64,000 nucleotides of DNA, taken from Synergistota bacterium (GTDB taxonomy: Bacteria > Synergistota > Synergistia > Synergistales > 79-D21). This document shows positions 748-27,100 of this stretch, one piece after another. Location of the stretch: positions 9,539 through 73,538 of the forward strand of contig JALHIN010000006.1 in NCBI GenBank assembly GCA_022839995.1, given 5' to 3'. Every line of letters begins with the position of its first letter. The first letter of the stretch is position 1. The notes under the pieces were generated by a model. That model was not told the origin of the DNA. It was given only the letters and a program-made list of their open reading frames with translations, and made no database searches. A program made the translations under genes and the position numbers.

Positions 748-2535
748 ATGATCGAGAAAGAAGCCTTCCCTTCGGCGGTTCGGTATGTTTCCATCTATCG
801 GCGTTACCGACCCTTGCGATTCGAGGAGGTTGTCGGACAGGACCCGGCCGTCTCGGTTCTCAAGCGTTCCCTAGAAACCGGTAAGACCGTACACGCCTAC
901 CTGTTTTCCGGACCCAGGGGGTGCGGAAAAACATCCCTGGCGCGGATTCTCTCGAAGGCTCTCAATTGCCAGGATGGAACCCAAAAGGCAGAACCTTGCG
1001 GAATTTGCCCGAGCTGCCTGGCGATCACGGCGGGCGAAAGCCTGGATGTTGTAGAAATCGACGGTGCTTCCAACCGGGGGATTGACGAGGTCAGGGAACT
1101 GAAGGCCCATGTCTCGCTTGCACCGTTTTCTTCCCGCCGGAAGATCTACATCATCGACGAAGTTCACATGCTCACCGAGCCGGCATTCAACGCCCTTCTA
1201 AAGACGCTCGAGGAACCCCCCGCCCATGCCGTTTTCATCCTAGCGACCACGGAACCCCAGAAGGTCCCGGTAACGATTCGTTCCCGGTGTCAGCACATCC
1301 CTTTCCGCAGGATTTCAGGAAGGGACATCGCAACGCGGTTGGCCCTGGTTTGCGAAAAGGAGGGGATACCCGCGGATGAGGCTGCCCTCTGGGAACTCGC
1401 AAGGCAGGCGGACGGGGCAATGCGTGATGCCCTGTCGCTCCTTGAGCAGGCGATCCCCGTCGGGGCGGGCTCCGTGACGCTGGATTCCGTCCGGGCTCTT
1501 TTGGGGGGCGGGAGCCGTTCCGAGATGGAGAGGTTCGTTGCTTCCTTCCGCTCAAGGCCCGAAAAAGCCGTCTCAGAACTCATGGACTCTCTGAGGAAGG
1601 GAACTTCCATGGAAAGGGTCCTGGAAAACCTGTTCCTCATCTTCCGGGACCTATGGATCCTGAAAGCGTGGGGAGAAACTGCCTTGGAGGGGCTGGAGCT
1701 CTCCCGGGAGGAGAGATCGTTCCTTCTCGGGGAAGTCGGTTTCTGGACGGCGGAGGGGCTTCGCGACTGCCTGGAGACTCTTTCCCGCATGATCGGCCGA
1801 TCTCGGACGGGAATCCGGACCGATGTCCTGGCCGGGCTCCTTCTCGAGGGGCTTCTGCCGGCTGCCTCGGCTTCGTGTCCGAACGGGACCGGGGCAGAGA
1901 TGCCGCTTCAGGAGAGGGAGCCTCATACCCCGAGGACAAGGATTTCCCAGCCTTCTCCTGCCGTCTTGGACCGGCAAAAGGAACCGGCCGGAAATACCGC
2001 GCCCGCAATGGATATCGATGCGGTACGCCGTTTCTGGCTGGGTCTACTGGAAAGCCGGGACCCGGAGGATCGGCAGATTTCCGCGGCTCTGGTCCCAGCT
2101 CGTGTTTTATCCGGGGAGAGCGGCATCGAGGTGTCCTTTTCCACCCGTGATCGCTTCTGCTTCGAGCTGATCCGGCTGGAACGAAACCTGAGGCGTTTCC
2201 ATACCTTGAAGGAAAGTGCCCTGGGAGACCTGCCTTTCGCGTTCAACTGCGGAAAGGACCGGTTTTCCTGGAAAGAACCAGCGGTCAAGGAGGCTTCCCC
2301 ATCAGGGGAAGACGGTTTGTTCCCCTGGCGACAGCGCAAAGCCCAGGCAGAAAAGCCGGAGAGGGGTGTTCGAACACCGGAAACCGGGACGAAAGTCGAA
2401 ACTCCCCCGGAAGATCCTGCGATTTCACAGATCGACGAGATGCTCGGCTGGTTCGGCGGGGAAATCCTTCTGGTCAGAACGGACGACCAGGAAAGTGGGA
2501 TAGCTGGATTTGACGAAGGGAGCGTGGGGGAATGA
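748..2535 (+). CDS. dnaX: DNA polymerase III subunit gamma/tau
   Basis: 595-aa ORF with Walker A GPRGCGKTS, zinc module CGICPSC, DEVHML box and SRC motif TIRSRCQ. SD AAAGGAG lies about 10 nt before ATG 748. Confidence 0.95.
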   Translation: MIEKEAFPSAVRYVSIYRRYRPLRFEEVVGQDPAVSVLKRSLETGKTVHAYLFSGPRGCGKTSLARILSKALNCQDGTQKAEPCGICPSCLAITAGESLDVVEIDGASNRGIDEVRELKAHVSLAPFSSRRKIYIIDEVHMLTEPAFNALLKTLEEPPAHAVFILATTEPQKVPVTIRSRCQHIPFRRISGRDIATRLALVCEKEGIPADEAALWELARQADGAMRDALSLLEQAIPVGAGSVTLDSVRALLGGGSRSEMERFVASFRSRPEKAVSELMDSLRKGTSMERVLENLFLIFRDLWILKAWGETALEGLELSREERSFLLGEVGFWTAEGLRDCLETLSRMIGRSRTGIRTDVLAGLLLEGLLPAASASCPNGTGAEMPLQEREPHTPRTRISQPSPAVLDRQKEPAGNTAPAMDIDAVRRFWLGLLESRDPEDRQISAALVPARVLSGESGIEVSFSTRDRFCFELIRLERNLRRFHTLKESALGDLPFAFNCGKDRFSWKEPAVKEASPSGEDGLFPWRQRKAQAEKPERGVRTPETGTKVETPPEDPAISQIDEMLGWFGGEILLVRTDDQESGIAGFDEGSVGE

Positions 2536-5500
2536 AGGATCCTTTCGTTCACCTGCACGTTCATAGCGAATACAGCCTTCTCGATGGGGCAATCCGCTGT
2601 TCGGAAATTGCCGCCAAAGCGGCTGAATGGGGCTCGCCTGCCGTTGCGCTGACTGACCATGGAGCCATGTACGGAGCGGTGGAATTTTACGAAAAATGCC
2701 ACGCTTGCGGAGTCAAACCGCTGATTGGTTGTGAGGTTTATGTGGATCCGCTGGGGCATACCTGCCGGGACCGGAAGGGCGGAAATAACCACCTGATCCT
2801 CCTGGCCCGGGATCTTGAAGGATACCATAACCTGGTCAAGCTGGTTTCGATTGCCAATACCGACGGTTTTTACTACAGACCGAGGATTGACCACGACCTC
2901 CTCGCCCGGTATTCCAAGGGCCTGATCGCTTCTTCCGCCTGCCTGGCCGGAGAAATCCCCTCCTTGATCCTCGAGGGGAACGAAGAGGGGGCAGCGGAGC
3001 GGGCAAGTCTCTACCAGGACATCCTGGGGAAAGGCAATTTCTATTTGGAGGTCATGCACAACGCACTGGCGGAGCAGGCCCTCGTGAACAAGGCGATCGT
3101 CCGCATCGCCAAGAGAACGGGAATCCCCCTGGTGGCGACCAACGACGCCCATTACCTGAATGCCTCGGACGCCTCCTGGCACGACATCCTGCTTTGCGTC
3201 CAGACCAACGCCACAGTCAACGAACCTAACCGCTACCGGTTTGGCGCTTCCGATTTCTACCTTCGCTCCCCCGAGGAAATGTGGACGCTATTCGGGAGGG
3301 AACTGCCCGAGGCGCTGACGAATACCCTTGAAATTGCGGAAAAATGCGACGTCAAGCTCGACTTCAACGTCTACCGGCTTCCCCGGTACGAGGTCCCGGA
3401 AGGGGAAACCCTTGAGAGTTACCTGGAGAAACTCGCCTGGGAAGGGCTGGATGAGCGAATGAACGGGAATCCTCCCCAAGAATACCGGGAGAGGATGTCC
3501 TACGAGCTTGGAGTCATCAAGAAAATGGGCTTCGCCGGGTACTTTCTCGTGGTGTCCGATTTCATCCGGGCGGCCAAGTCCCGAGGCATCCCGGTAGGGC
3601 CCGGGCGGGGGTCGGCGGCAGGATCCCTTGCCGCATGGGCACTGAAGATCACCGAACTGGATCCCATCCGCTACCAACTCCTCTTCGAGCGCTTCCTGAA
3701 TCCTGAGCGGATCAGCATGCCCGACATCGACACGGACATCTCCGACAAGCGCAGGGACGAAGTTCTTGATTACGTCGTGCAGAAATACGGACGGAATCAT
3801 GTCGCCCAGATCATCACCTTCGACCGGATGAAAAGCAAGGGAGCGATCCGCGATGTCGGACGGGCTTTAGGCATCCCCCTTGCGGATGTAAACCGGGTGG
3901 CAAAGAGCGTTCCGGACGGCGTTGGGAGCATTTCCGAGGCCCTGGAGGAGTCGCCGGACCTGTCTCTTTTCCAGAAGAAGGAACCCGCGATCAAGAACCT
4001 TCTTGAAGTGGCAGGAAAGATCGAGGGTCTCGCCCGCCACTGCTCCCAGCATGCCGCAGGGGTTGTGATCTCCCCCGTGGAAGTGACCGACCTGGTTCCC
4101 GTTCGGAAGATCGGGGAGGGCCAGGTGGTTACCCAGTTCGGCATGGAGGCCATCGAAAAACTCGGCCTGGTCAAAATGGATTTCCTGGGGCTGAGAACCC
4201 TTTCCATGATCGAGGACACGCTCGAAAACATCCGGTTGAACGGAAAGGACGTTCCTGACATCAACGCCCTTCCGCTGGATGATCCTTCGACCTTCTCACT
4301 CCTTCAGGCAGGCGACACCCTGGGTGTTTTCCAGCTTGAATCTCCCGGAATGAGGCAACTCCTGAAGAAGATCGTGCCGGATTCCTTCGAGGACCTCGTG
4401 GCGATTCTGGCCCTGTACCGCCCGGGTCCGCTCGAGAGTGGCATGGTGGACCAGTTCATCAACTGCAAGCACGGCAGGTCCGAGGTTGTCTACCCGCACC
4501 CCCTGCTTGAACCCGTCTTGAAGGAAACCTACGGAGTGATCCTGTACCAGGAGCAGGTGATGCAGATCGCGGCGACGCTGGCGGGATTCTCCCTGGGGGA
4601 GGCGGATCTCCTCCGGAGGGCGATGGGTAAAAAGAAAATGGAAGTGATGGAGCAGCAGAGGAAAAAGTTCGTGGATGGCTGTCTCCGTAACGGTGTCGAG
4701 CGGGGCACGGCGGAATCCCTTTTCGATCTCATTCAGAAGTTCGCCGGTTACGGTTTCAACAAGTCCCACAGTGCGGCCTACGCGCTGATCAGTTATCAGA
4801 CCGCCTACCTCAAGGCTCATTACAAGGCCGAATTTTTGGCAGCCTTTCTTTCAAGTCAGATCGGTTCCAGAATGGATGTCCTTGCGCGGTACGTCCGCGA
4901 GGTCAGAAATGCAGGGATACAGGTCCTGCCCCCGGATATCAACGAGTCTGGAGCCACCTTCTCTGCCGTGGGGCGGGTGATCCGCTTCGGTCTAAAGGCA
5001 GTCGCGAAAGCGGGTGAAACTGCCGTGGAGGCGATCCTGCAGGCCAGGCAAACGAAAGGAACCTTCCAATCTCTCTGGGACTTCCTAAACAAGGTTGACC
5101 TGCGAATTGTCAACCGGAGCGTGGTCGAAAACCTCATCAAGGCGGGAGCGTTTTCCGCGATCCATCCGAACCGGAGGCAGCTGCTCGAGAACTTGCCGAT
5201 CCTGATTGACCGCGTGCAGAAAAAACAGAGCGACGGGGCCCAGAGATCCCTGCTGACGCTGGTAGAGGAACTGCCCCGGGAAGAACCCGAGATGGAAGAG
5301 ACGGAAGATTTTTCCGTTCTGGAAACGCTGGACCTGGAAAAGGAGGCCCTGGGACTTTTCATTTCTGGGCATCCGCTGGAAAAAGAGGAAGAGAGGATTG
5401 CGAGGTTTTCGACCTGTCGGATCGCCGACTTGCGTTACTGGAAGGCTCCTGAAACCCAAGCAACCGTCGGCGGCCTCCTAGTGGGCTTTAAGGAAAAAAC

Positions 5501-5939
5501 CACAAAGCGCGGAGACCTGATGGGAATCCTCGAATTCGAAGATACGGAGGCCAGGCTTGAAGTGGTCTGCTTCCCGAAAACCTGGCCTGAGGTCAAGGCA
5601 ATCCTGGATCCCGGAAAAGTCTTTTTTGCCCGGGGGAAGGTCCAGGATCGAGGCGGAATCACGATGGTCGCCGAAGAGATCATCCCGTTGTCGGAGATCG
5701 AGGCCTGCCAGGAACCGTTCGTCAGAATTCGACTGAAGGGCACCGCAGGTGCGCTGCCCTTCAAGGCCATCTGCCGCGAATTGAAGGGGCACGCTGGCGC
5801 TTCTCCGGTGTTACTCGAATACCTGGGCGAGAATTCGGTGACGCTCATCCGGTTGAAGGATATCCGGGTAAAGCCTGAACCATCCCTCGCGGAGCGCCTG
5901 ACGGATCTCTCGGAGGGAGCACTGGAAGTCATCCTGTAA
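2532..5939 (+). CDS. dnaE: DNA polymerase III alpha subunit (DnaE type)
   Basis: 1135-aa ORF. PHP-domain N-terminus FVHLHVHSEYSLLDGA, followed by the polymerase core and a C-terminal OB region. The ATG overlaps the dnaX stop (ATGA at 2532-2535). Confidence 0.97.
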   Translation: MKDPFVHLHVHSEYSLLDGAIRCSEIAAKAAEWGSPAVALTDHGAMYGAVEFYEKCHACGVKPLIGCEVYVDPLGHTCRDRKGGNNHLILLARDLEGYHNLVKLVSIANTDGFYYRPRIDHDLLARYSKGLIASSACLAGEIPSLILEGNEEGAAERASLYQDILGKGNFYLEVMHNALAEQALVNKAIVRIAKRTGIPLVATNDAHYLNASDASWHDILLCVQTNATVNEPNRYRFGASDFYLRSPEEMWTLFGRELPEALTNTLEIAEKCDVKLDFNVYRLPRYEVPEGETLESYLEKLAWEGLDERMNGNPPQEYRERMSYELGVIKKMGFAGYFLVVSDFIRAAKSRGIPVGPGRGSAAGSLAAWALKITELDPIRYQLLFERFLNPERISMPDIDTDISDKRRDEVLDYVVQKYGRNHVAQIITFDRMKSKGAIRDVGRALGIPLADVNRVAKSVPDGVGSISEALEESPDLSLFQKKEPAIKNLLEVAGKIEGLARHCSQHAAGVVISPVEVTDLVPVRKIGEGQVVTQFGMEAIEKLGLVKMDFLGLRTLSMIEDTLENIRLNGKDVPDINALPLDDPSTFSLLQAGDTLGVFQLESPGMRQLLKKIVPDSFEDLVAILALYRPGPLESGMVDQFINCKHGRSEVVYPHPLLEPVLKETYGVILYQEQVMQIAATLAGFSLGEADLLRRAMGKKKMEVMEQQRKKFVDGCLRNGVERGTAESLFDLIQKFAGYGFNKSHSAAYALISYQTAYLKAHYKAEFLAAFLSSQIGSRMDVLARYVREVRNAGIQVLPPDINESGATFSAVGRVIRFGLKAVAKAGETAVEAILQARQTKGTFQSLWDFLNKVDLRIVNRSVVENLIKAGAFSAIHPNRRQLLENLPILIDRVQKKQSDGAQRSLLTLVEELPREEPEMEETEDFSVLETLDLEKEALGLFISGHPLEKEEERIARFSTCRIADLRYWKAPETQATVGGLLVGFKEKTTKRGDLMGILEFEDTEARLEVVCFPKTWPEVKAILDPGKVFFARGKVQDRGGITMVAEEIIPLSEIEACQEPFVRIRLKGTAGALPFKAICRELKGHAGASPVLLEYLGENSVTLIRLKDIRVKPEPSLAERLTDLSEGALEVIL

Positions 5940-5963
5940 TTCCTCGAAACGGAGGGAAATCCA

Positions 5964-6224
5964 ATGCGAGAAGAAGCGGGAGAAGTCAAGTCCGTCCTGA
6001 GCGACTACCTTGTCATCAAGGCCCTCGAGAATGGAGTCACGGTGATCGGGCTCACGAGGGGGCAGGAGACCAAGTTCAGCCATACCGAGAAACTCGATGC
6101 AGGGGAGGTCTGGATTTCCCAGTTCACGGAGCACACTTCGGCGATGAAAATCAGGGGAGCCGCTGAAATCTACACCAAGCACGGCAGAATCCTTTGCGGG
6201 AGGTTGCAGGATGAAAAAGGTTAA
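5964..6224 (+). CDS. mtrB: trp RNA-binding attenuation protein (TRAP/MtrB) homologue
   Basis: 86-aa [24 protein letters not shown]...EKLDAGEV...[13 protein letters not shown] aligns by eye with B. subtilis MtrB as I recall it. SD GGAGGG lies 8 nt before the ATG. Confidence 0.85.
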
Positions 6225-7968
6225 GATTGTCTGTACGCTGGGCCCTGCCTGTCGATCCAGGGAAACGCTTGCCGGTATGGTCAGGGCAGGGATGAATGTT
6301 GCCCGGTTGAACTTCAGCCACGGATCGTACGAAAGCCACGGGGAGAATGTCGAAAACATCCGGGCGGTGGAGAAGCAGCTTGGAATCCCGATCGCAACGA
6401 TTCTCGACACGAAAGGGCCGGAAATCCGAACGGGCAAACTGTTTAACGGCCTCTCCGTCAACCTTGTCCGGGGACAGGTCTTCCGGTTTGTCGCCCATGA
6501 CGTGATGGGGACAGAGAACCAGGTTTCGATCAGCCATCCGCAGGTTTGCAGGGAACTCAACCCCGGCCAGGATGTCTTCATCGACGACGGTAGCCTGCAC
6601 TTGAAAGTCCTCCAGGCGGGCGACACGGAGCTTTTGATGGAAGTCCTCGTCGGTGGGGAACTGGGGGAACAGAAGGGAGTCAGTTTCCCCGGAGCGAAGC
6701 TGAAAATCCCCACTTTGACCGGAAAAGACCGTGAAGATATCCGCTGGGGACTCGATCACGGGCTTGATTATATCGCCGTCTCCTTTGTCCGCAGCCGGGA
6801 CGACATCATGGAGGTCCGACGGGTCATGGAGGAGATGGGCGGAGCGATGAAGATCATCGCGAAGATCGAGACAAGCGAAGCCGTTTCAGCGCTGGAAGAG
6901 ATCGTCGAGGTCGTCGATGGCTTAATGGTTGCGAGGGGAGACCTTGGGGTGGAACTCCCCGCCGAAGAAGTTCCGCTGATCCAGAAGCGCATGATTGACC
7001 TGGGCCGGTCTCAAGGGAAGCCGGTCATCGTCGCCACACAGATGCTTGACTCGATGATCCGGAACCCGAGGCCGACAAGGGCAGAAGTGAATGACGTCGC
7101 GAACGCGGTTCTGGACGGAGCGGACGCGGTGATGTTGTCCGGCGAAACGGCGAAAGGCGCATACCCTGTCCAGGCCGTGGAAACGATGGCTCGCATCATC
7201 GCAAGAACGGAGAAGGAAATTCGTGTCTGGCAAAGGCCTTCGTCACTTCCCCAGGTGGCCTCCCAGACGGTTCCTGATGCCGTAAGCCATGCGGCCGTGA
7301 CGATCGCCGAACAGATGCAGGCGAAGGTGATCCTGTCCCTGACCCAAAGCGGCAGCACGGCAAGAATGGTCAGCAAGTACAGGCCCGGCTGTCCGATAGC
7401 GGGTGTAACGGCGGATCGCAGGACATGGAGAGAGCTCGCGCTTGTGTGGGGGGTCGTTCCGATCCTGACCGGGAAGACCCATGCAGAGGAACGGGAAATG
7501 GTGGAGTCGGGCCTTATGGCCACCCTGGCGGAAGGGATGGCCTCCGAAGGGGATATCGTTGTCGTCACGTCCGGTATGCCGACCGGTATTGCCGGCACGA
7601 CCGATATGGTCAGGGTGCACACGGTCGGCAGGATTGTCGTGAAGGGCATTTCCCTGGTTCGAAAGGAAGCCTATGGCCCAGTGGTCAAGGGAACTACCGC
7701 TGCCGAGGCCAGGAGCAAGATGCGCCCAGGAGCCGTTCTTGTGGCAAGGCAGACGGACCGGGAATATGTGGATGTCATTCGAATGGCCTCGGCGATCATC
7801 TGCGAGGAAGGTGGGCTCACGAGCCATGCCGCTATCCTCGCCCTGGAGATGGGCATCCCCTGCGTCGTTTCTGCAACGGATGCCCTGAAGCTCCTCGAAG
7901 ACGGGATGTTGGTCACCGTGGACGGTTCTCGTGGCCTGGTCTATCACGGCAAGGTAACCGTGAGATAA
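6211..7968 (+). CDS. pyk: pyruvate kinase with C-terminal PEP-utilizer swivel domain
   Basis: 585 aa. N-terminus KIVCTLGPA...[11 protein letters not shown]. The C-terminal ~100 aa carry the GGLTSHAAI phosphohistidine-type motif, as in Bacillus/Geobacillus PK. Confidence 0.97.
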
Positions 7969-13012: not shown

Positions 13013-13894
13013 ATGGATGGGAAAAAAACACTTCAGAAATGCCTTTTTCCCGTCGCGGGTCTTGGAACGAGGTTCTTGCCGGCGACGAAGGACATCCCCA
13101 AAGAAATGCTTCCCCTGATCGACCGGCCACTCATCCACTACGGAGTGGAGGAAGCGGTTTCGTCGGGCTGCAGCGATATCGTTTTCGTGACGGGAAGGAG
13201 CAAGCGGTCGATCGAGGATTATTTCGACCGTTCGATCGAGCTTGAGAACCTGCTGGAAAAAAGGGGGAAGTTCCAGTTAAGGGACGAACTGGCCAGGATT
13301 TCCGAGATGGCCCGCTTTGCCTACGTGAGGCAATCGGAGCCGCTTGGGTTAGGACATGCCGTTCTCTGCGGGGAACCCTGTTTCAACGATTCTTTTTTCG
13401 GGCTGATCCTCCCGGATGACGTGATCCTTTCGGATCAACCGGTCCTTGGACAACTGCTCGAGGTCCATCAATCCATGGGAGGATCGGTTCTTGCCCTGGA
13501 GGAAGTTTCCTGGGAAGAGACTTCAAGGTATGGAATCATCGAAGGAACCGCCTGCGGAGAGGGAATTTTCAGGATCACGAACCTGGTGGAGAAGCCCGCC
13601 CCGGGGTTGGCTCCGAGCCGGTATGCGATCATCGGCCGGTATCTTCTCAGCCCTTCGATTTTCCGGCACTTGCGTTCGGTCCAGGCGGGGGTAGGAGGGG
13701 AAATTCAGCTGACGGACGCACTTCAGGCTCTTCTGGCCGAAGAACCGGTCTACGGTCTACTCTATCGCGGAAAGAGGCTGGACTGCGGAACGAAAATGGG
13801 ATGGCTGAAGGCGACAGTAACCATGGCGATGCATGATCCCGAGCTCAGGGAAACCCTCATCGAAATCGTCAGGAAGGAGGAATGGGATGGCTGA
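13013..13894 (+). CDS. galU: UTP--glucose-1-phosphate uridylyltransferase
   Basis: ORF 12893..13894 is trimmed to ATG 13013. The N-terminus KCLFPVAGLGTRFLPATKDIPKEMLP is the GalU signature. Confidence 0.92.
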   Translation: MDGKKTLQKCLFPVAGLGTRFLPATKDIPKEMLPLIDRPLIHYGVEEAVSSGCSDIVFVTGRSKRSIEDYFDRSIELENLLEKRGKFQLRDELARISEMARFAYVRQSEPLGLGHAVLCGEPCFNDSFFGLILPDDVILSDQPVLGQLLEVHQSMGGSVLALEEVSWEETSRYGIIEGTACGEGIFRITNLVEKPAPGLAPSRYAIIGRYLLSPSIFRHLRSVQAGVGGEIQLTDALQALLAEEPVYGLLYRGKRLDCGTKMGWLKATVTMAMHDPELRETLIEIVRKEEWDG

Positions 13895-13920
13895 ATGGTC
13901 CTGAATCCATTGCGTGCCGA

Positions 13921-14078
13921 TGGAAGCGCCAGAACTGGCGTAGCCAGTTGACGAGGTCGGGGAAAATCGAAAATTCGGCGGATACCCCGGGGTCTGCGTG
14001 GGAGAGGCCCGTTGAAGCCCGGTTACAAAACCGCGAAGCGATTTGCGGGACAAAAGCCGGGTCTCCCGCTGGGCGGTC
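13921..14078 (+). promoter_or_regulatory. glmS ribozyme: glmS ribozyme (GlcN6P-activated self-cleaving leader)
   Basis: AA|GCGCCAGAACUGGCGUAGCCAGUUGACGAGGUCGGGGAAAAUCGAAAAUUCGGCGGAUACCCCGG matches the conserved glmS ribozyme core as recalled from the B. subtilis sequence. It sits directly 5' of glmS, with predicted cleavage 5' of G13926. Confidence 0.9.
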
Positions 14079-14097
14079 AAAGGAGCGAAAAACGGAA

Positions 14098-15924
14098 ATG
14101 TGTGGAATCGTTGGATACGTAGGCATGCGGAACGCCCCGGAGGTCCTTCTGGAAGGACTGAAGAGGCTCGAATACCGCGGGTATGACTCGGCTGGGCTTG
14201 CAGTCAAGAGCTCGGGGCGCCTGGAGGTCATCAAGGAGGTCGGCAAGGTTGCCGATTTGGCACGCCTTGTCGAAGAGAGGCGGCTGGAAGGCTGCCAGGG
14301 AATCGGTCACACGCGGTGGGCAACACATGGTGGAGTTTCGGTGGACAATGCCCACCCTCATTGTGATGACTGCGGGAATTTCGTCCTCGTCCACAACGGG
14401 ATTATCGAAAACTACCTTGATTTGAGGGAGGAGCTGGAGGCGTCCGGCGTCTCCTTCTCTTCGGAAACGGACACCGAGGTCATTGTCCAGCTCCTGGCCC
14501 GGCTTTACCGGGGGGACATGCTGGATGCGCTGCTGAATCTCAACGGAATGCTGCGTGGATCCTACGCCCTAGCGATCATGAACCGTGAGATCGATGGGAC
14601 CTTTTACTGCCTCAGGAAGGGATCCCCGCTCATCCTGGGGATCGGTGACGGGGAGGGGTTCTGCGCATCGGACGTTCCTGCCCTTCTGCCCTACACGCGG
14701 CAGGTTGTGTACCTGGAAGAAGGAGAAATCGCCGCCGTTTCGAGAGAGGGGCTCAAGGTCTGGACAAGCGACGGGCAACCGGTCGAAAAAAGCATTTCGA
14801 CCATCGATTGGGACATCTCGATGACGGAGAAAGCGGCCTACCCGCACTACATGCTTAAGGAAATCCACGAACAGGGTGCGGTCCTCCGGACAACCCTCAA
14901 GGGAAGGGTGGAAAACGGGAAAGTCGATCTTTCTCCCGAGCTGGCCTGGGACAAGGATCTGGCACTTTCCTGGAAGAAACTTCACATCGTGGCCTGCGGG
15001 ACCTCCTATTATGCAGCCCTGGTTGCCGAAAGAGTCCTCGAAAAATGGACCGACATCGAAGTGAAGGTCGATATCGCTTCCGAGTACCGCTACCGCCACT
15101 TCAGGGCCGACCCGGAAACTCTCGCGGTTTTTGTTTCCCAGTCTGGGGAAACGGCGGACACGCTTGCAGCTTGCCGCCTTGCCCGTTCCCAGGGAGCCCA
15201 TTGCCTTGCGGTGACCAACGTGCGAGGTTCGACGCTGGCTCGGGAAGTCCACGACGTCCTGCTTCTGAAGGCGGGGCCCGAGATCGGGGTGGCAGCTACG
15301 AAAACGTTTATGGGGCAGATTGCCGCCCTGTACCTGTTGGCTCTCTACCTGGGGCGGCTGCGGGAAAACCTCTCTGCGGCCGAGGGCAATCGCCTACTGG
15401 AGGAAATGTTGAGATTGCCCTACAAGGTGGAGGTCACACTGGAAAGGGAAGAGTCCGTCCGGGAACTGGCCACGAAATATGCAGATAGGAAAGATTTCCT
15501 CTTTCTTGGAAGAGGGATGTCGTTCCCCGTCGCCCTGGAAGGTGCACTCAAACTGAAGGAAATCTCCTACGTTCATGCGGAGGCCTATGCCGCGGGTGAA
15601 ATGAAACATGGGCCGATTGCCCTTCTTGAGGCGGCGGTTCCGGTAATGGTCATCATTCCGAGAGATGGGCTTTACGAGAAGACGCTTTCCAACATCCAGG
15701 AAGCCAAGGCGAGAAAAGCCCCGATCCTTGCGGTAGCAACCGATGGAGACGAACTCATCTCGCGCCACGCGAACGACGTCCTGCGCGTACCATGGACCGA
15801 TGAGGAATTGACACCGTTTCTGACTGTCATTCCTCTGCAGCTGTTCGCCTACCACATGGCCCGGCTGAGAGGGTGCGAGATCGATCAACCGAGGAACCTG
15901 GCGAAAAGCGTGACCGTGGAATAG
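14098..15924 (+). CDS. glmS: glutamine--fructose-6-phosphate aminotransferase
   Basis: MCGIVGY N-terminal nucleophile, two SIS domains and a C-terminal ...AKSVTVE. ORF 13882..15924 is trimmed to ATG 14098 because the upstream part is the ribozyme. Confidence 0.97.
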   Translation: MCGIVGYVGMRNAPEVLLEGLKRLEYRGYDSAGLAVKSSGRLEVIKEVGKVADLARLVEERRLEGCQGIGHTRWATHGGVSVDNAHPHCDDCGNFVLVHNGIIENYLDLREELEASGVSFSSETDTEVIVQLLARLYRGDMLDALLNLNGMLRGSYALAIMNREIDGTFYCLRKGSPLILGIGDGEGFCASDVPALLPYTRQVVYLEEGEIAAVSREGLKVWTSDGQPVEKSISTIDWDISMTEKAAYPHYMLKEIHEQGAVLRTTLKGRVENGKVDLSPELAWDKDLALSWKKLHIVACGTSYYAALVAERVLEKWTDIEVKVDIASEYRYRHFRADPETLAVFVSQSGETADTLAACRLARSQGAHCLAVTNVRGSTLAREVHDVLLLKAGPEIGVAATKTFMGQIAALYLLALYLGRLRENLSAAEGNRLLEEMLRLPYKVEVTLEREESVRELATKYADRKDFLFLGRGMSFPVALEGALKLKEISYVHAEAYAAGEMKHGPIALLEAAVPVMVIIPRDGLYEKTLSNIQEAKARKAPILAVATDGDELISRHANDVLRVPWTDEELTPFLTVIPLQLFAYHMARLRGCEIDQPRNLAKSVTVE

Positions 15925-17124: not shown

Positions 17125-17436
17125 TTATACCCTTACCTGTTTTCGATCTTCCTCCTTTTCGCCTTCCGGCTTTTCTTCAGGAGGAATGACCTTGGCAAAA
17201 ACGAGAGGGAATCGAACGCGAAGAATGAAGATCAGGAAAAGTGGAAGCAATGGCCCGGCCGCAAGCCACCATTCCCCAGCCCATCCAAGGAAAAGCGCTG
17301 AAAATAGAAGGCCGGAAACGAGGAAAAACCAGAATGAACGACGAACCTTGCTTCTCCGTTCCCGACCTGCCTGAAAACCCAACGCGGCCGCGAGAACGAG
17401 GAGGGCGACCGCTCCGACGAAAAAAAGGACCATCAT
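17125..17436 (-). CDS. small integral membrane protein (about 3 TM) with acidic C-terminal tail
   Basis: 103 aa with three hydrophobic stretches and the tail PPEEKPEGEKEEDRK. It lies 14 nt after the fur stop and 7 nt before the next gene. The SD is weak. Confidence 0.55.
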   Translation of the reverse strand: MMVLFFVGAVALLVLAAALGFQAGRERRSKVRRSFWFFLVSGLLFSALFLGWAGEWWLAAGPLLPLFLIFILRVRFPLVFAKVIPPEEKPEGEKEEDRKQVRV

Positions 17437-17450
17437 TTACTGAGGGTCTC

Positions 17451-17867
17451 TTACCGTACGTTACAACTGGGGCACAAACCGTACATGTAGAGCTGGACGC
17501 TCGAAATCGTGGAATCCTGGCCCATCTTCAGCATTTCGAGCAAAGAATCCGTTATCGGGATGTCCTCGATATGGCCGCAGGCCGTACAGCGGAAATGACC
17601 GTGAGGCTCCGGGTTTGGGTCGTAATTGACCCGCTTGTCGTCGATCGTGAGAATCTGCACGAGGTTCTTCTCTGCGAGAAGTTGCGCGGTGCTATAAATC
17701 GTCGCAAAGGAGATGGTCGGGAAGTCCCTTTTGAGTTCGTGGTAAATCTGCTCGGCGGAAGGATGGTCCTTGCGACCCTCCAAGCGCTTTAGGATGGCGA
17801 TTCGCTGCGCGGTAATCTTCGTGCCCGATTCTTTCAAGCGGGAGATGCCTTCATCAAGTGTCCACAT
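17451..17867 (-). CDS. Fur-family transcriptional regulator (Fur/PerR/Zur type)
   Basis: 138 aa. Winged-helix N-terminus (ITAQRIAILKRL...HPSAEQIY), HGHFRCTACG and CPSC zinc motifs. SD GGAGGG precedes the ATG. Confidence 0.9.
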   Translation of the reverse strand: MWTLDEGISRLKESGTKITAQRIAILKRLEGRKDHPSAEQIYHELKRDFPTISFATIYSTAQLLAEKNLVQILTIDDKRVNYDPNPEPHGHFRCTACGHIEDIPITDSLLEMLKMGQDSTISSVQLYMYGLCPSCNVR

Positions 17868-17899
17868 TGGTCAGCCCTCCAGATCAACAACTTTTCTAC

Positions 17900-17928
17900 A
17901 TAATAATCCTTACAAAACGTAATGACAA
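17900..17928 (-). promoter_or_regulatory. sigma-70-type promoter of the fur operon
   Basis: On the minus strand, TTGTCA-17 nt-TATTAT, about 30 nt upstream of the fur ATG. Confidence 0.55.
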
Positions 17929-18062
17929 GCGTGGATCCCAGAAGAAGAGGAATTTCGAGGAGGCAATTCCCCGTTTTTCAAAGGCAATGGAGCAGGAGAC
18001 CTTGTGTCACCGGAATCCTACAGATCCAGGGGCGGTCTTGGGTGCCTTTCGAAAGATTCGCC

Positions 18063-18091
18063 TTGCCAAAGGTGGATTGCATCGATATAAT
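18063..18091 (+). promoter_or_regulatory. sigma-70-type promoter of tRNA-Gly
   Basis: TTGCCA-17 nt-TATAAT, ending 12 nt before the first tRNA base. Confidence 0.65.
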
Positions 18092-18103
18092 ATCCCCCGC
18101 AGT

Positions 18104-18179
18104 GCGGACATAGCTCAGCTGGTAGAGCATCGGCTTCCCAAGCCGAGGGTCGCGGGTTCGAATCCCGTTGTCCGCTCCA
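18104..18179 (+). tRNA. tRNA-Gly (anticodon CCC)
   Basis: Hand-folded cloverleaf: acceptor GCGGACA/TGTCCGC, D arm GCTC-AGCTGGTA-GAGC, anticodon arm TCGGC-TTCCCAA-GCCGA, T arm GCGGG-TTCGAAT-CCCGT, discriminator U, encoded CCA. Confidence 0.93.
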
Positions 18180-18191
18180 TCGAATTTCAGA

Positions 18192-18218
18192 GGGAGGCTG
18201 AGAAAGCCTCCCTTTTTT
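18192..18218 (+). terminator. intrinsic terminator after tRNA-Gly
   Basis: GGGAGGCT-GAGAA-AGCCTCCC followed by TTTTTT. Confidence 0.85.
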
Positions 18219-18253
18219 GATTGATTCGGACAATTTTCCATCTTTTCCCGCGG

Positions 18254-18273
18254 ATTGTGACAATTGACACAAT
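18254..18273 (+). promoter_or_regulatory. 20-bp near-perfect palindrome (candidate operator) overlapping the V-ATPase -35
   Basis: ATTGTGACAA|TTGACACAAT pairs at 9 of 10 symmetric positions. It contains TGTGA-N6-ACACA, resembling the TGTGA-N6-TCACA class of CRP/FNR/Rex sites. Confidence 0.45.
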
Positions 18274-18293
18274 ATTCCGTTGCCGATTAGAAT
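18264..18293 (+). promoter_or_regulatory. sigma-70-type promoter of the V-ATPase operon
   Basis: TTGACA-18 nt-TAGAAT, about 70 nt upstream of the first V-ATPase gene. Confidence 0.55.
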
Positions 18294-18364
18294 ACTCAGG
18301 GTGAATTTTCCTGTGTATTGTGGAATGCATTTTTTTAAAATGTTTTGCAAGGGAGGTGAAACCA

Positions 18365-18691
18365 ATGGTAGCGAATTTGGCTGATGAAATAAGGCAGGCA
18401 GAGGATAGCGCGAAAAAAATCATACAGCAGGCAAAAGCTGAGGCCGCTCGCCTCGTTTCCGATGCACGGTCTGATAGTGAAAGAAAAATTAAGGAAGCGA
18501 AGCAGGAACTGCATCAGAGGTTCCGCCAAGAGATCTCGGAGGCCGAAAAGCGGGCTGAGAAGCGCGCCGAAACGATCCGGGCCGAAGGGAAGCAGCAAAC
18601 GGAAACGTTCGTCACGGCACGGAAATCGCGGGTGGAAGAAGTGGCGAACTGGCTGGTGAAAGAGGTGACGGCGAAATATGGCCTTAGTTGA
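18365..18691 (+). CDS. V/A-type ATPase small coiled-coil stalk subunit (G/H-like)
   Basis: 108 aa of Ala/Glu/Lys/Arg-rich helix (ADEIRQAEDSAKKIIQQAKAEAARL...). It is the first gene of the V-ATPase operon. GGGAGG lies 8 nt before ATG 18365. Confidence 0.7.
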   Translation: MVANLADEIRQAEDSAKKIIQQAKAEAARLVSDARSDSERKIKEAKQELHQRFRQEISEAEKRAEKRAETIRAEGKQQTETFVTARKSRVEEVANWLVKEVTAKYGLS

Positions 18692-20711
18692 GATGAAAAA
18701 GGTCGAGCTTGCCCTGCATCGCTCCGTAACGGACCAGGTGATCGCATCCCTCCAGCGACTTGGATGTTGCGAGATCATCAGGGAAGGAGTCGACAGCGCT
18801 TCTGCGGAGGCCGATGGCGGGAAGGTAACGGAAGAGCTCAAACGCTATGAAAACCTGCTGGCCGATGCCCGGTTCGCCTTGCGTTTTCTGGAGAACTACA
18901 GGGGGGAGAAGGTTGGTTTTCTTGCGAAGGCCTTGTCCGAAAAACCCCGCTACTCGATGAGCGAATTGGAATCCTGTGCCCAAGAGATCGATTTTCAGAA
19001 CTTGATCCTTCGCCTCCGGGGCATTGAAAGACAGTTTGTAGAAATCCGAACCGAACTCTCCCAGATTGCAGGATTGGAAGCAATTCTGCGAACCTTCAGC
19101 GACCTTCCTCAACCTCTTTTCTTCTTCACAACCGGCTCAGAAAAGGTAAAGGGAATCCTTGGGACCTTGCCGACAGACCAGGTCAACCGTCTTGAGCTGG
19201 CTTTTTCTACCCACGTAGGAAAAGAGGGAGAGCTATTTATCCGAATCGGCAACCCCGAAAAGGACAAGGAAGCGAAAGCAGCTCTCATCTACCTTCGCGA
19301 GAACGAGGAGAAAGTGGCTGGGATCTGTGGAGAGGTGGCTTTCAACCGGATCGATCTCCCGCTAGAACTTTCCGGAACGGTCGAAGAAGAGATCATTCGA
19401 CTGGAAGAACGCAAACGGTCCTTGCAGCAGAAGGATTCCGAGCTGCAGGCTGAAGCGAGGTCCCTTTCCGCGGAATGGCTGAACCGAATCCAGGCCCTTT
19501 CCGATTACTTGAGCGTGATGAAGGGGCGTTTTGAAGCTCTTGATTCGAGCGAACGAACCGAACAGAGTCATTTCATTCGTTTCTGGGCCCCGGCTGAATC
19601 CCTGGCTAGGATTGAAAAGGAGCTGGAACCGTATCGGTCGCTATCCGAAAAGACGGTCAAGGCTCCGGAAGAGGGGGAAGATGCTCCTTCCCTACTCAAA
19701 AACCCGAGTTGGGCCTCCCCCTGCGAACCCCTCACGAACATGTTCGGCGTTCCGACTTACGGCGGGGTCGACCCGACGACCATGATGGCTCCTTTTTTCT
19801 ATGTCTTTTTTGGCATGTGCCTGGGTGATGCGGGGTTCGGAATCATCCTGGCGGCCCTGCTGGGGTGGGTGCTGCTTAAATTCCCCGTTGGCGGCAACCT
19901 GAGAAAACTTCTCATCGTCATGTTCATCTGCGGCCTCTCTACAATCGTGATGGGAGCCCTTACGGGTTCTTGGCTCGCAAACACGATCGACAGCTTCGCT
20001 TTCCTCCATTTCCTTCGTCCGCTCAGGGACCGATTGGTCATCTGGGATCCGATGAACGATCCGATGACATACTTGGGGGTTTGCCTCACGCTTGGGTTCG
20101 CCCAGCTGATCTTCGGTCTTTGCATCGCGTTCTGGGATGCTTTGAGGCGCGGCTCCTACTTGGAGGCATTTGCAGACCGTGGCGGCTGGATCCTTCTGCT
20201 CAACGGGGTGGCCCTCCTTTTCCTCGTGTCGATCGGGAAAGCACCGGCCTCGATGGGAATGTTGGCGAAAGTGCTGTCTATTGCGGGGGCTGTCACCTTG
20301 TTCCTGACACAGGGGAGGAGCAAGAAAGGGGTCCTGGGGAAAGCTTTTTCCGGGGCGCTCAGCCTTTACGGGATCACTTCCTATCTCGGGGATACCCTCA
20401 GTTACAGCCGCCTCCTGGCCCTAGGACTATCCGGAGCCGCCATCGGCCTGATCATCAACCTCCTTGCGAAGATGATCTCGGAAGGCGTTCCTTACGTGGG
20501 GTGGATCTTGGCCCTGATCCTTTTCGTCGTAGGAAACATCTTCAGCCTGGCGATCAACGTTCTCGGGGCTTTCGTCCATTCCCTTCGACTCCAGTACGTC
20601 GAGTTTTTCAGCAAGTTCTACGAGGCGAACGGCAGGCTTTTTGCCCCCTTTTGCCATGAAACCCAGTTCGTGAAGATCGTTGATTCCTGCGCGCAGCAGG
20701 AAGAAATGTGA
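18678..20711 (+). CDS. atpI: V/A-type ATPase subunit I (membrane a-subunit)
   Basis: 677 aa: a cytoplasmic coiled N-terminal half followed by about 7-8 TM helices, including the conserved LSYSRLLALGL region with the essential Arg. Confidence 0.93.
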   Translation: MALVEMKKVELALHRSVTDQVIASLQRLGCCEIIREGVDSASAEADGGKVTEELKRYENLLADARFALRFLENYRGEKVGFLAKALSEKPRYSMSELESCAQEIDFQNLILRLRGIERQFVEIRTELSQIAGLEAILRTFSDLPQPLFFFTTGSEKVKGILGTLPTDQVNRLELAFSTHVGKEGELFIRIGNPEKDKEAKAALIYLRENEEKVAGICGEVAFNRIDLPLELSGTVEEEIIRLEERKRSLQQKDSELQAEARSLSAEWLNRIQALSDYLSVMKGRFEALDSSERTEQSHFIRFWAPAESLARIEKELEPYRSLSEKTVKAPEEGEDAPSLLKNPSWASPCEPLTNMFGVPTYGGVDPTTMMAPFFYVFFGMCLGDAGFGIILAALLGWVLLKFPVGGNLRKLLIVMFICGLSTIVMGALTGSWLANTIDSFAFLHFLRPLRDRLVIWDPMNDPMTYLGVCLTLGFAQLIFGLCIAFWDALRRGSYLEAFADRGGWILLLNGVALLFLVSIGKAPASMGMLAKVLSIAGAVTLFLTQGRSKKGVLGKAFSGALSLYGITSYLGDTLSYSRLLALGLSGAAIGLIINLLAKMISEGVPYVGWILALILFVVGNIFSLAINVLGAFVHSLRLQYVEFFSKFYEANGRLFAPFCHETQFVKIVDSCAQQEEM

Positions 20712-20753
20712 ATTCCCGAAGAAAACCCATCTTTTTAAGGAGGAGTGGAACTT

Positions 20754-21266
20754 ATGGACCAGGTCGTCGCAACTCTCTTGAATACCATGTCGGAACAGCT
20801 CGGGGCGATGATTGCCGTTTTGGGAGCGGGAATTGCAGCGGGTTTCGCCGGTTCGGGCTCCGCGATCGGAATCTCGATCGCCGATGAGGCGGCTGCCGGG
20901 ATCATGACCGAAGACCCTGGAAAGTTCGGATTGGCGCTGCTCCTGCTGGCCCTTCCCGGTACCCAGGGAATCTATGGCCTTCTTGCGGCTTTTTTTGCCA
21001 TTCTGAAAGTGGGGCTTCTCGGAGGAGCCGCGGTGAAAGTGACCGTCTGGCAGGGGATCGGGATTTTCGGCTCCCTGATGCCCATTGCGATCGCTTGCTA
21101 CTACTCGGCGATTGCGCAGGGGAAAGCTTCTGCCGGTGCGATCCTGCTGATTTCCAAGCGTCCGGAAGAGATCGGTAAAGCCGTGATCCTGCCGGCCATG
21201 GTTGAAACCTATGCCGTTCTCGCGCTTCTGCTCAGCATCATCCTGATGAACAGCATCAAGCTCTAG
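20754..21266 (+). CDS. atpK: V/A-type ATPase subunit K (16-kDa proteolipid, 4 TM)
   Basis: Aligns by eye with Enterococcus hirae NtpK (LPGTQGIYG, SAIAQGK, AMVETYAVL). AAGGAGG lies 10 nt before ATG 20754; the track ORF begins at GTG 20745. Confidence 0.93.
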   Translation: MDQVVATLLNTMSEQLGAMIAVLGAGIAAGFAGSGSAIGISIADEAAAGIMTEDPGKFGLALLLLALPGTQGIYGLLAAFFAILKVGLLGGAAVKVTVWQGIGIFGSLMPIAIACYYSAIAQGKASAGAILLISKRPEEIGKAVILPAMVETYAVLALLLSIILMNSIKL

Positions 21267-21272
21267 GCCGGG

Positions 21273-21863
21273 GTGTCTGGCATGTCGCTGACGGATATCA
21301 AGGCGAAAATCGAGGAGGATGCCCGGGGAGAGGCGGAAGAAATTCTTTCTTCTGCACGGAACCAGGTCGAAAAGATCCGACACCAGACGGAAGAAGAAAT
21401 CCGGCGGATGGAGGAAATGCAAAAGAAACGCCTGGATGCGGAGATCCCGGAAATCCTGCGCAGGAAGGAAATCGTGGCAAAACTGGACGTGAACAACCAG
21501 GACCTGACTGCACGAAGAGCCCTGATCGATGAGGCCTTTGAAGCCGCAAAGAACATCATGTGCGGGATGGAGCCCGATATGGCGAGGCGCTTTGCGGAAA
21601 CCTTGCTTCTGCAGGCCGTTGAGACGGGGGAAGAAAGCGTCCTCGTCGGACAGGAAGAGAAGGCCCTGGATGCCGAATGGCTGGGGCAATGCAATGAGAA
21701 ACATGGCTGGAACCTGAAGATGGCGGAAAAGAAGGCTCCGATCACCGGGGGATTCATTCTTCGGCGTGGCCTGGTGGACGTAAACTGTTCCTGGGAAATG
21801 CTGATCAGGACAGCCAGGGAAGAGCTCGAGGCGGAGACGGTCAGGAAGCTTTTCTCCAATTGA
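21273..21863 (+). CDS. atpE: V/A-type ATPase subunit E
   Basis: 196 aa with a long N-terminal charged helix (IKAKIEEDARGEAEEILSSARNQVEKI) and a globular C-terminus. Operon position supports the call. An alternative start is ATG 21282. Confidence 0.88.
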   Translation: MSGMSLTDIKAKIEEDARGEAEEILSSARNQVEKIRHQTEEEIRRMEEMQKKRLDAEIPEILRRKEIVAKLDVNNQDLTARRALIDEAFEAAKNIMCGMEPDMARRFAETLLLQAVETGEESVLVGQEEKALDAEWLGQCNEKHGWNLKMAEKKAPITGGFILRRGLVDVNCSWEMLIRTAREELEAETVRKLFSN

Positions 21864-21877
21864 CGGGAGGTGAGGGA

Positions 21878-22894
21878 ATGGCCCAGGCGGAACGTTATGG
21901 CTATACGGTAGCACGCCTGAGGGCGATGGAAAATCGCCTCCTGGATTCCGGTGCTTTTCAGCGGATGCTGGATGCAGAGGACCTGCAGGGAGCACTCAAG
22001 GTTCTCAACGAGACCTGCTATTCGTCCTGGCTCGTTGAGATGAAGAACGAGGGCGCTTTTGACGGGGCCATCGAGGCCGAGTTGAACTACGTGTACAGAG
22101 AAACCGAGCAATTTGTCCCTGACAGGGCTCTGGTCACCCTCTGCAAAATGCCTTACGACTTCCACAACATCAAGGTGTTGTTGAAAAGCTCCTTCCTGCA
22201 GAAAGCCGGCGGGGTGCGGCGATGGGATCTCCTGACTTGGCTGGGAAACGTTTCCCCCGAGTTTTTGATCGAATCCCTCGAATCGGAAGATTACCGTCTC
22301 CTGCCTTTCGGTCTGAGAAGCGCGGTACCGCGGTGCCTGGCGCAATGGGAACAGTTCCATGACATCCTCGAAATCGAGCGGCAGCTGGACGACCTCCTTT
22401 TTTCCGAAATGTTGAAGTTGGCCGCGAAGCTCGAACGGAAAGGTGTGATGGAATGGGTCCAGGGAAGGATCGATGCGGAAAACGTCCGAAACCTCCTGAG
22501 GCTCCGCCGGTTGCAGGTGGAGAACAGCAGGATTGCCGGGTTCATGCACGAGGGGGGCATCATTTCGATTGAACGCCTCCTTTCCCTGACGAGCGAGCCC
22601 CTGGAAAGCTGGGGAAGGATCCTGGCTTACACCGACCTGACAGGAGCGCTGGCGGAGCTTCAGGAGATCTCCGATTTCGACCGGCTCATCGTAGACGTGG
22701 AAAAAGCACTGGACGACTACGTCCTCAGGGTTGTCGAGCAGACGCGGTTCAGTACCGCTTCTCCCGAGTATGTCCTTTACTACCTTTGGTTGAAGGAAAT
22801 GGAAGCGAAGAATGTCCGGATCATCCTTGTCGGCAAGGCAAACGGAGCCAACAGGGACGTCCTGAGGGGGTTGCTGCGGCATGTCAGCGGTTAG
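21878..22894 (+). CDS. atpC: V/A-type ATPase subunit C (d-type)
   Basis: YGYTVARLRAMENRLL N-terminus, all-helical, about 340 aa. GGGAGGTGAGGG precedes ATG 21878; the track ORF begins at TTG 21860. Confidence 0.9.
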   Translation: MAQAERYGYTVARLRAMENRLLDSGAFQRMLDAEDLQGALKVLNETCYSSWLVEMKNEGAFDGAIEAELNYVYRETEQFVPDRALVTLCKMPYDFHNIKVLLKSSFLQKAGGVRRWDLLTWLGNVSPEFLIESLESEDYRLLPFGLRSAVPRCLAQWEQFHDILEIERQLDDLLFSEMLKLAAKLERKGVMEWVQGRIDAENVRNLLRLRRLQVENSRIAGFMHEGGIISIERLLSLTSEPLESWGRILAYTDLTGALAELQEISDFDRLIVDVEKALDDYVLRVVEQTRFSTASPEYVLYYLWLKEMEAKNVRIILVGKANGANRDVLRGLLRHVSG

Positions 22895-23222
22895 CAGAAA
22901 CCGGTCGATGGCTGCTCTCGGCGATTACGAGAGCGTCCTTCCCTTTCAGGCGGTCGGTATTGAGCCCCATGTGCTCGAAGACGGATCGGAGACGGAGGCG
23001 AAAATGGTCCTGAACGAACTCGTGCTGAAAAAATACGCCGTGGTCTTCGTCGTCGAGGATTGGTACGAGCGCATGAAGGAACGGATCGAGGAAATCAACG
23101 AAAAGGAAGACACGAGCATCGTTCCCATCCCCGGACTTCGGGGATCGAGAGGCTTGGGGTTCAAGTCGATCAAGTCGAGCGTCGAACGGGCAGTCGGGAT
23201 GGACATTTTTTCCGTGAAGTAA
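22881..23222 (+). CDS. atpF: V/A-type ATPase subunit F
   Basis: About 105-113 aa. The [18 protein letters not shown] motif and operon position support the call. An alternative start is ATG 22908. Confidence 0.85.
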
Positions 23223-23247
23223 TCGGAACAGGTTGGAGGCGATCCAT

Positions 23248-26449: not shown

Positions 26450-26462
26450 GGAGGGCGAACCG

Positions 26463-27089
26463 ATGGCGAAACGATTGAATGTGAACCCGAACCGCATGGA
26501 GTTGTCCAGGCTGAAAAAACGCCTGGTGGTTGCGAAGAGGGGACACAAGCTCCTGAAGGACAAGCAGGATGCTCTGATCAAGGAATTCCTTGGGAGGGCA
26601 AGGGCGATCAAACTCTTAAGGGAACAGCTCGAGAGTGAACTCGCGGAATGTTACCGCAGCTTTCTGCTGGCGCGGGCGCAGACCTTGCCGGCCATGCTGG
26701 AGCAGGCTTTGATGATCTCCGGGGCTTCCTGCAGCTTGGAAGTTGCCTACAGGAACGTCATGAGCGTCATTGTCCCTGAGTACACGGTCAAGCAGGGCGG
26801 AGGGGGCCTCAGCTACGGGCTCGCGACCTCTCCCGGCAGCCTCGATATCGCCCTGGAAAAGTTTTCCAACCTGATCACACGGCTGATCAAGCTTGCAGCA
26901 GACGAGAAAGCCCTGAAACTCATGGCTACCGAGATCGAGAGGACACGGCGGCGCGTGAACGCACTCGAGCATGTCATGATCCCCTCTTTTAAGGAAACGA
27001 TCCGGGATATCACGATGAAATTGGACGAGATGGAGCGGTCAAGCCAGAGCCGACTGATGGTGATCAAGGAAATCGTCCGCTCGCACTAG
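26463..27089 (+). CDS. atpD: V/A-type ATPase subunit D (central stalk)
   Basis: The 208-aa coiled-coil sequence NPNRMELSRLKKRLVVAKRGHKLLKDKQDAL is the canonical subunit D N-terminus. Confidence 0.95.
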   Translation: MAKRLNVNPNRMELSRLKKRLVVAKRGHKLLKDKQDALIKEFLGRARAIKLLREQLESELAECYRSFLLARAQTLPAMLEQALMISGASCSLEVAYRNVMSVIVPEYTVKQGGGGLSYGLATSPGSLDIALEKFSNLITRLIKLAADEKALKLMATEIERTRRRVNALEHVMIPSFKETIRDITMKLDEMERSSQSRLMVIKEIVRSH

Positions 27090-27100
27090 GGCCGAGGAAC

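Follow-up and report, generated by a model that had tools for sequence, protein, structure and literature searches.

Sequence comparison and a predicted fold identify a TRAP (MtrB) orthologue of Synergistota, encoded between dnaE and pyk in an inherited gene order

We analyzed a 64-kb stretch of Synergistota DNA (hereafter, the window) in which an 86-aa open reading frame lies between the genes for a DNA polymerase subunit and pyruvate kinase. The features of this locus are as follows.

748–2535, + strand: dnaX, clamp-loader tau/gamma (Pfam DNA_pol3_delta2/DNAX lid)
2532–5939, + strand: dnaE, DNA polymerase III alpha, 1135 aa (Pfam PHP/DNA_pol3_alpha/finger/HHH_6)
5940–5963, + strand: dnaE-mtrB spacer of 24 nt, with the mtrB Shine-Dalgarno sequence GGAGGG at 5951–5956
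5964–6224, + strand: mtrB (TRAP), 86 aa, with the ATG at 5964 and the stop codon at 6222–6224
6198–6224, + strand: 3' end of mtrB with the pyk Shine-Dalgarno sequence GGGAGG at 6198–6203 and the 14-nt mtrB/pyk overlap at 6211–6224
6211–7968, + strand: pyk, pyruvate kinase, 585 aa (Pfam PK, PK_C, and PEP-utilizers, the PEP-utilizer domain being C-terminal)

Reading the sequence reproduced exactly the coordinates given in the original prediction, namely the reading frame at 5964–6224, the 24-nt spacer, the pyk ATG at 6211, and the 14-nt overlap. The dnaE stop codon is a TAA at 5937–5939. The pyk product matched the NCBIfam pyruvate kinase subfamily PRK06354 with 699 bits. The 3' end of dnaX and the start of dnaE share 4 nt, and dnaX probably leads the replication genes in the transcription unit that comprises dnaE, mtrB, and pyk.

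A Shine-Dalgarno sequence of its own precedes each of mtrB and pyk, at junctions of 24 nt and −14 nt, respectively. Within the overlap, the same bases encode the TRAP tail D-E-K-G-stop and the pyk residues M-K-K-V-K. A consensus scan for promoter-like or terminator-like sites between dnaE, mtrB, and pyk found none. Because these junctions offer neither room nor signal for a promoter or terminator, mtrB is almost certainly co-transcribed with dnaE and pyk, as had been proposed. Translation of pyk is possibly coupled to that of mtrB.

The original prediction had assigned the 86-aa protein to TRAP and suggested an HMM search as a check. In that search, residues 13–76 matched Pfam TrpBP (PF02081) with an E-value of 3.9e-38 and 129.6 bits (gathering score 21.3). 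The NCBIfam equivalog MtrB (NF009724) was passed with 130.7 bits at a cut-off of 117, and phmmer against PDB sequences returned TRAP entries only, among them G. stearothermophilus 1c9s with an E-value of 4.8e-25 over residues 13–76. An AlphaFold2 monomer model, built with 32 homologues as input, had a mean pLDDT of 81 and seven strands, as in the TRAP-type seven-stranded beta-sandwich. The core of the sandwich comprises residues ~13–78, flanked by extensions of ~12 aa at the N-terminus and ~8 aa at the C-terminus, and low confidence is confined to the protein ends (residues 1–3 and 84–86). When the model was submitted to Foldseek against the PDB, the top 41 matches were all TRAP, the best being 1c9s with an rmsd of 0.7 Å and a target-normalized TM-score of 0.92.

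For the residue comparison, 18 sequences from Synergistota, Clostridia, and Bacillus were aligned (B. subtilis numbering in parentheses). The residues E42 (E36), K43 (K37), D45 (D39), K62 (K56), R64 (R58), and F38 (F32), which are RNA contacts in the TRAP-RNA structures (1C9S), were invariant in all 18 sequences. Equally invariant were G29 (G23), T31-R32-G33 (T25-R26-G27), T36 (T30), H40 (H34), Q53 (Q47), T55 (T49), and T58 (T52). These residues, together with S59 (S53), which is present in the window protein and missing from only two of the 18 sequences, are the tryptophan-pocket positions of established TRAP structures. The motifs GLTRG, FTEHTSA, EKLD, and MKIRG, pointed out earlier in the protein, are present and aligned to TRAP residues, with ligand and RNA-contact positions intact. 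Thr30 of TRAP is treated in PMC1474065. Profile matches, predicted fold, and aligned residues together identify the 86-aa protein as a genuine TRAP/MtrB orthologue of Synergistota, and databases already label these Synergistota proteins MtrB.

Compared with the TRAPs of G. stearothermophilus and B. subtilis (1C9S, 1QAW, 1WAP), the window protein is 62% and 59% identical, respectively, over the alignment, and 68% identical over 66 structurally aligned residues. The predicted fold lies within the 0.7 Å given above, and the Lys/Lys/Arg triad and the tryptophan-pocket loops are identical. However, the host is a diderm Synergistota rather than Bacillus, and the gene lies in dnaE-mtrB-pyk instead of folE(mtrA)-mtrB. 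The protein also differs in its ~9-aa N-terminal and ~8-aa C-terminal extensions, of which the C-terminal one owes its shape to the pyk start that it overlaps, and in Trp50 (in place of Leu/Ile/Met), Ser39 (His33), and Glu35 (Asp29), the last two being neighbors of tryptophan-pocket residues. These peculiarities are shared by Synergistota TRAPs, which have the ~9-aa N-terminal extension, Trp50, Glu35, either Ser or Ala in place of His33, and the C-terminal tail; at position 39, Ser occurs in the window protein and Ala in other Synergistota.

The 12-mer TRAP of Bacillus halodurans (3ZZL) has the same fold and is 60% identical over structurally aligned residues. Lys15 and Thr72 have been described as the signature of 12-mer TRAP (PMC3184956). 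The window protein does not carry this signature; its position 15 is Leu21, matching the 11-mer TRAP of G. stearothermophilus, and its position 72 is Cys78, followed by a longer tail, onto which the C-terminal ring-size determinants (PMC3184956) map poorly.

The closest proteins are from Synergistota: Synergistaceae MAGs (94% identity), followed by Aminomonas paucivorans, Aminiphilus, Thermovirga, and Thermovirgaceae. Among genome loci, the best match was a Synergistales MAG in which all three proteins, DnaE, TRAP, and Pyk, show 88% identity to their window counterparts, and metagenome contigs from several public samples carry identical copies. Against the L008 orthologue (88% identical), dN/dS was 0.05, indicating strong purifying selection. 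Identity to the Aminomonas proteins is 79% for TRAP and 64% for both DnaE and Pyk. The mtrB gene is retained across several Synergistota families.

The context had been described as neither folE-mtrB nor a trp operon, and the arrangement dnaX-dnaE-mtrB-pyk agrees with this. The description of the gene as an orphan does not hold, since dnaX-dnaE-mtrB-pyk was found in every Synergistota locus retrieved (L008–L013, L018, L020, L021, L026, L030, L032, and L210–L213), including strain M3-1 and Thermovirgaceae/Synergistaceae MAGs. Aminomonas paucivorans DSM 12260 has the order M48 peptidase-dnaX-dnaE-mtrB-pyk-...-cdaA-ybbR-glmM-...-glmS, as in the window, and the 14-nt overlap too. In the other Synergistota, the dnaE-mtrB spacer measures 12–45 nt. 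The mtrB/pyk overlap is 14–20 nt in the window clade, Aminomonas, M3-1, Thermovirgaceae, L009, and L013, and 4 nt in L020, whereas five loci (L018, L021, L026, L030, and L032) have a gap of ~15–35 nt and no overlap. In the overlapping loci, the TRAP tail D/N-E-K/T-G/S-stop shares its bases with the pyk residues M-K/R-K/R-V-K; thus, the tail looks conserved because the same bases encode the pyk N-terminus.

A one-genome-per-species scan yielded at least 591 TRAP-encoding loci, from which we took the 80 most similar to the query and classed them by tblastn, clustering, and Pfam; as these are the nearest relatives of the query, Bacillales are under-sampled in the following counts.

dnaE-mtrB-[accD-accA]-pfkA-pyk: 30 of 80 loci (Thermincola, Carboxydothermus, Heliorestis, Halanaerobium, Syntrophothermus, Limnochordia, and Desulfotomaculum relatives)
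dnaE-mtrB, then contig end or other genes: 15 of 80 loci
dnaE-mtrB-pyk directly (Synergistota): 12 of 80 loci
mtrB followed by a trp operon: 7 of 80 loci
Bacillales-type hbs-folE-mtrB-hepS-like, named by position only: 6 of 80 loci
mtrB-...-pyk, with the contig beginning at mtrB: 3 of 80 loci
other or too short: 7 of 80 loci

Overall, 58 of the 80 loci closest to the query have dnaE shortly before mtrB, and dnaE-mtrB-...-pfkA-pyk is the commonest TRAP context among them. The folE-type context appeared only in Bacillales loci (L068, L070, L073, L079, L084, and L085), in which folE and hepS were named by position and size. In the Clostridia-type block (Thermincola, Carboxydothermus, Heliorestis, Halanaerobium, and the Desulfotomaculum group; L033, L037, L041, L074, and L016), mtrB directly follows dnaE, pyk comes later on the same strand, and the TRAP core shares 64–79% identity with that of the window. 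However, 1.2–3.4 kb holding a DUF2007 gene, usually accDA, and pfkA part mtrB from pyk there, whereas the mtrB of the window runs into pyk. No homologue of PfkA, AccA, AccD, or DUF2007 was found near mtrB in the Synergistota loci. Judged by gene content, the direct mtrB-pyk junction is most simply explained as the Clostridial block minus its middle genes, mtrB adjoining pyk because Synergistota do not have the pfkA/accDA genes that separate the two in Clostridia. In many Clostridia, a terminator-like hairpin with a T-run follows mtrB; this, together with the intervening DUF2007, accDA, and pfkA genes, indicates that the persistent partner of mtrB is dnaE, not pyk. The dnaE-mtrB-pyk position is therefore an old, inherited, and widely common gene order with no special wiring.

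The DUF2007-like gene (PF09413, best E-value 1.6e-8) encodes ~60–70 aa and, in 41 of the 80 loci, follows mtrB at a distance of 10–190 nt, for example at L025 7541–7783, L028 10294–10533, L031 618–830, L033 10340–10528, and L041 10279–10476, with ~36 more. It is limited to the Clostridia dnaE-mtrB-X-[accDA]-pfkA-pyk loci and is missing in Synergistota, in Bacillales, and where a trp operon follows mtrB. We considered its product as a TRAP partner, which is unsupported, as the terminator-like hairpin usually parts the DUF2007 gene from mtrB; it may instead head the acc-pfk-pyk unit.

Runs of (G/U)AG triplets are the target of TRAP (PMC3064811). We scanned the window and 87 loci for such arrays, permitting one missing triplet in both and using spacers of 2–3 nt (strict) and 1–4 nt in the window. 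The absence of an array from the window, reported previously, was confirmed: the longest chain had 3 triplets with 2–3-nt spacers and 4 with one missing, against 4–8 in shuffled sequence and 7–9 triplets in the control loci described below. Likewise, no array occurred within ±10 kb of mtrB in the Synergistota loci (L001–L013, L018, L020, L021, L026, L030, and L032), and the ~10 kb past either end of the window held no trp gene or array. A tblastn search with TrpE/G/D/C/F/B of L080 found no trp genes in the window or the retrieved Synergistota loci, which cover ~20–85 kb per genome. An Rfam scan of the window detected no T-box or other tryptophan-related RNA. For anti-TRAP (RtpA), a B. subtilis query gave no tblastn match at E ≤ 1 in the window and the Synergistota loci, a small part of each genome. 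A literature search on TRAP in Synergistota and Clostridia, dnaE-mtrB linkage, and tryptophan biosynthesis in Synergistota, with key reviews falling outside it, returned nothing specific.

We also submitted the pattern KAGNN x7 against metagenomes (loci L088–L207). Among the matches listed, most were pentanucleotide microsatellites of eukaryote style (TTAGG, GAGAA), and only L129, L153, and L089 were array-like, none of them resembling Synergistota. Metagenome searches for such arrays thus need a complexity filter.

The same array scan was positive in uncultured Bacillota, which served as the control. In L024, L047, L078, and L080, 7–9 (G/U)AG triplets lie 60–190 nt downstream of mtrB in a textbook attenuator layout: the array, a GC hairpin with a T-run, a Shine-Dalgarno sequence, a DAHP-synthase::TrpE fusion or TrpE, and then TrpG, D, C, F, and B. 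Two of these loci, L047 and L080, have a dnaE-linked mtrB 110–130 nt upstream of an array of 7–8 triplets, in the order dnaE-malic enzyme-TrkA_C protein-mtrB-array, with dnaE ~5 kb upstream of mtrB. In L080, a terminator hairpin with a T-run and then aroG::trpE-trpGDCFB come after the array, an arrangement that directly connects a dnaE-linked mtrB with the control of trp genes; the L047 contig ends at the array. A similar mtrB-leader-trp layout was found in L017, L022, L024, L027, L064, and L078. In all eight loci, the regulator adjoins its target, and nothing alike occurs in the window. The dnaE-malic enzyme part resembles the B. subtilis neighborhood dnaE-ytsJ-accD-accA-pfkA-pyk. These arrangements suggest that mtrB entered or left the ancient dnaE block more than once.

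Two of these leaders differ in detail. Between mtrB and aroG::trpE in L022 (10230–10470) and L027 (2490–2710), only three contiguous GAG triplets (GAGATGAGCTGAG) precede the terminator, and more GAG/UAG triplets lie upstream, parted by small GC-rich hairpins, e.g., GGGGCTGTGAAGCCC, as an interrupted variant of the TRAP array. The first gene of the TRAP-controlled trp operon in uncultured Bacillota is a fusion of DAHP synthase (PF00793) to anthranilate synthase component I of ~770 aa, found at the following positions.

L024, 10438–12753: DAHP synthase::anthranilate synthase I fusion
L080, 10468–12786: the same fusion
L022, 10470–12791: the same fusion
L027, 2709–5084: the same fusion

We regard it as probable that the protein is a canonical tryptophan-activated TRAP ring, a constitutively co-transcribed passenger of a housekeeping operon that acts on (G/U)AG leaders in other parts of the genome. 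Homology suggests that the 86-aa subunits would form an 11- or 12-membered ring binding L-tryptophan in pockets between adjacent subunits. The liganded ring would wrap single-stranded RNA carrying a run of (G/U)AG triplets with 2–3-nt spacers, one Lys-Lys-Arg site per subunit, and thereby attenuate transcription or block translation of genes for tryptophan biosynthesis and/or uptake. The dnaX-dnaE-mtrB-pyk operon would provide a steady supply of the regulator, control being exerted through tryptophan binding and not through mtrB expression. Its position would be the Synergistota version of the Clostridia dnaE-mtrB-(accDA)-pfkA-pyk order, minus pfkA and accDA. The RNA target would lie elsewhere in the genome and be acted on in trans; we place it in a trp or tryptophan-uptake leader because the contact residues are unchanged and because mtrB-array-trp loci exist.

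There is a smaller chance that the ring, the tryptophan pocket, and RNA binding were kept for another regulon, such as uptake, export, or catabolism of tryptophan or aromatic compounds, or unrelated mRNAs. The asaccharolytic, amino-acid-fermenting Synergistota may be without a trp operon, and trp genes were absent from all Synergistota sequence examined, although this says little at ~20–85 kb per genome. Two published observations also count for such a regulon: a gut-microbiome survey reported mixed amino-acid prototrophy in three Synergistetes strains (PMC9026213), and Bacillus TRAP controls transport genes too (PMC1474065). However, since all RNA-contact residues are unchanged, the protein should follow the same (G/U)AG grammar, and every array seen in the loci precedes trp genes. 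If the Synergistota TRAP had no trp leader to bind, it would be a considerably more interesting case.

The original prediction had raised an unusual wiring to the PEP/pyruvate node. In such a wiring, TRAP would control pyk or be co-regulated with it, so that tryptophan status feeds back on the supply of PEP, from which aromatic amino acids are made. The 14-nt mtrB/pyk overlap, the linkage throughout Synergistota, and the presence of mtrB in a pfkA-pyk block in many Clostridia would fit this idea, which we nevertheless consider improbable. The gene order is inherited and occurs in hundreds of species, the overlap is not conserved across the phylum, and no TRAP-type array was found in or near dnaX, dnaE, mtrB, and pyk in the window or the relatives scanned, leaving no TRAP site on the transcript. 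Moreover, the hairpin, DUF2007, accDA, and pfkA intervene before pyk in many Clostridia, and the absence of pfkA/accDA accounts for the direct adjacency. Equally improbable in our estimate is a second, housekeeping role of TRAP that keeps mtrB in the dnaE unit from Clostridia to Synergistota, for example tryptophan sensing on the replication/glycolysis operon or on RNAs other than trp leaders; it could even be the main job in Synergistota, where tryptophan synthesis may be lacking, through a motif outside the (G/U)AG scan. A decaying relic or chance reading frame without present function, for which the missing local target might speak, is effectively refuted and scarcely credible, given the dN/dS value, a TRAP more conserved than its essential neighbors, the invariant functional residues, and the several families that keep mtrB.

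TRAP is a textbook RNA-binding attenuator that has been studied almost entirely in Bacillus. The canonical reading reveals no new mechanism, and the protein is a fairly ordinary member of the TRAP family. What the locus adds is an intact copy under strong selection in a phylum of diderm bacteria, as well as the usual home of mtrB outside Bacillales, immediately after dnaE within the ancient dnaE-(accDA)-pfkA-pyk block. This is of use for annotation and for reconstructing how the TRAP system became separated from its target, and it adds to the Firmicutes-type regulators carried by Synergistota, in which CodY has already been reported (PMC9318921). Its less routine side is the regulon that a TRAP ring would have in Synergistota living by amino-acid fermentation.

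The rest of the window consists of housekeeping genes: nudix, AP endonuclease, cdaA-ybbR-glmM, glmS, a V-type ATPase operon, the dcw cluster, molybdenum-cofactor genes, rapZ-cofD-whiA, and gap-pgk-tpi. The following features were observed in addition.

13914–14072, + strand: glmS ribozyme/riboswitch (Rfam RF00234, 86 bits), immediately upstream of glmS
17241–27089, + strand: V-type (A/V) ATPase operon encoding subunits I, c/K, A, B, and D; several small reading frames without a Pfam match lie ahead of it
18104–18179, + strand: tRNA-Gly(CCC)
27654–28002, + strand: RNase P RNA class A (287 bits)
48409–50337, + strand: MoeA carrying a PBP_like (molybdate-binding-like) domain as a C-terminal fusion, adjoining a second, stand-alone MoeA in a moaA-moaC-mog cluster

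The glmS ribozyme is best known from Firmicutes and represents another regulatory element of Firmicutes type in Synergistota. Its position shows that the long reading frame called at 13882–15924 begins too early. The reading frame at 27064–27861 on the − strand, which overlaps the RNase P RNA, is probably spurious.
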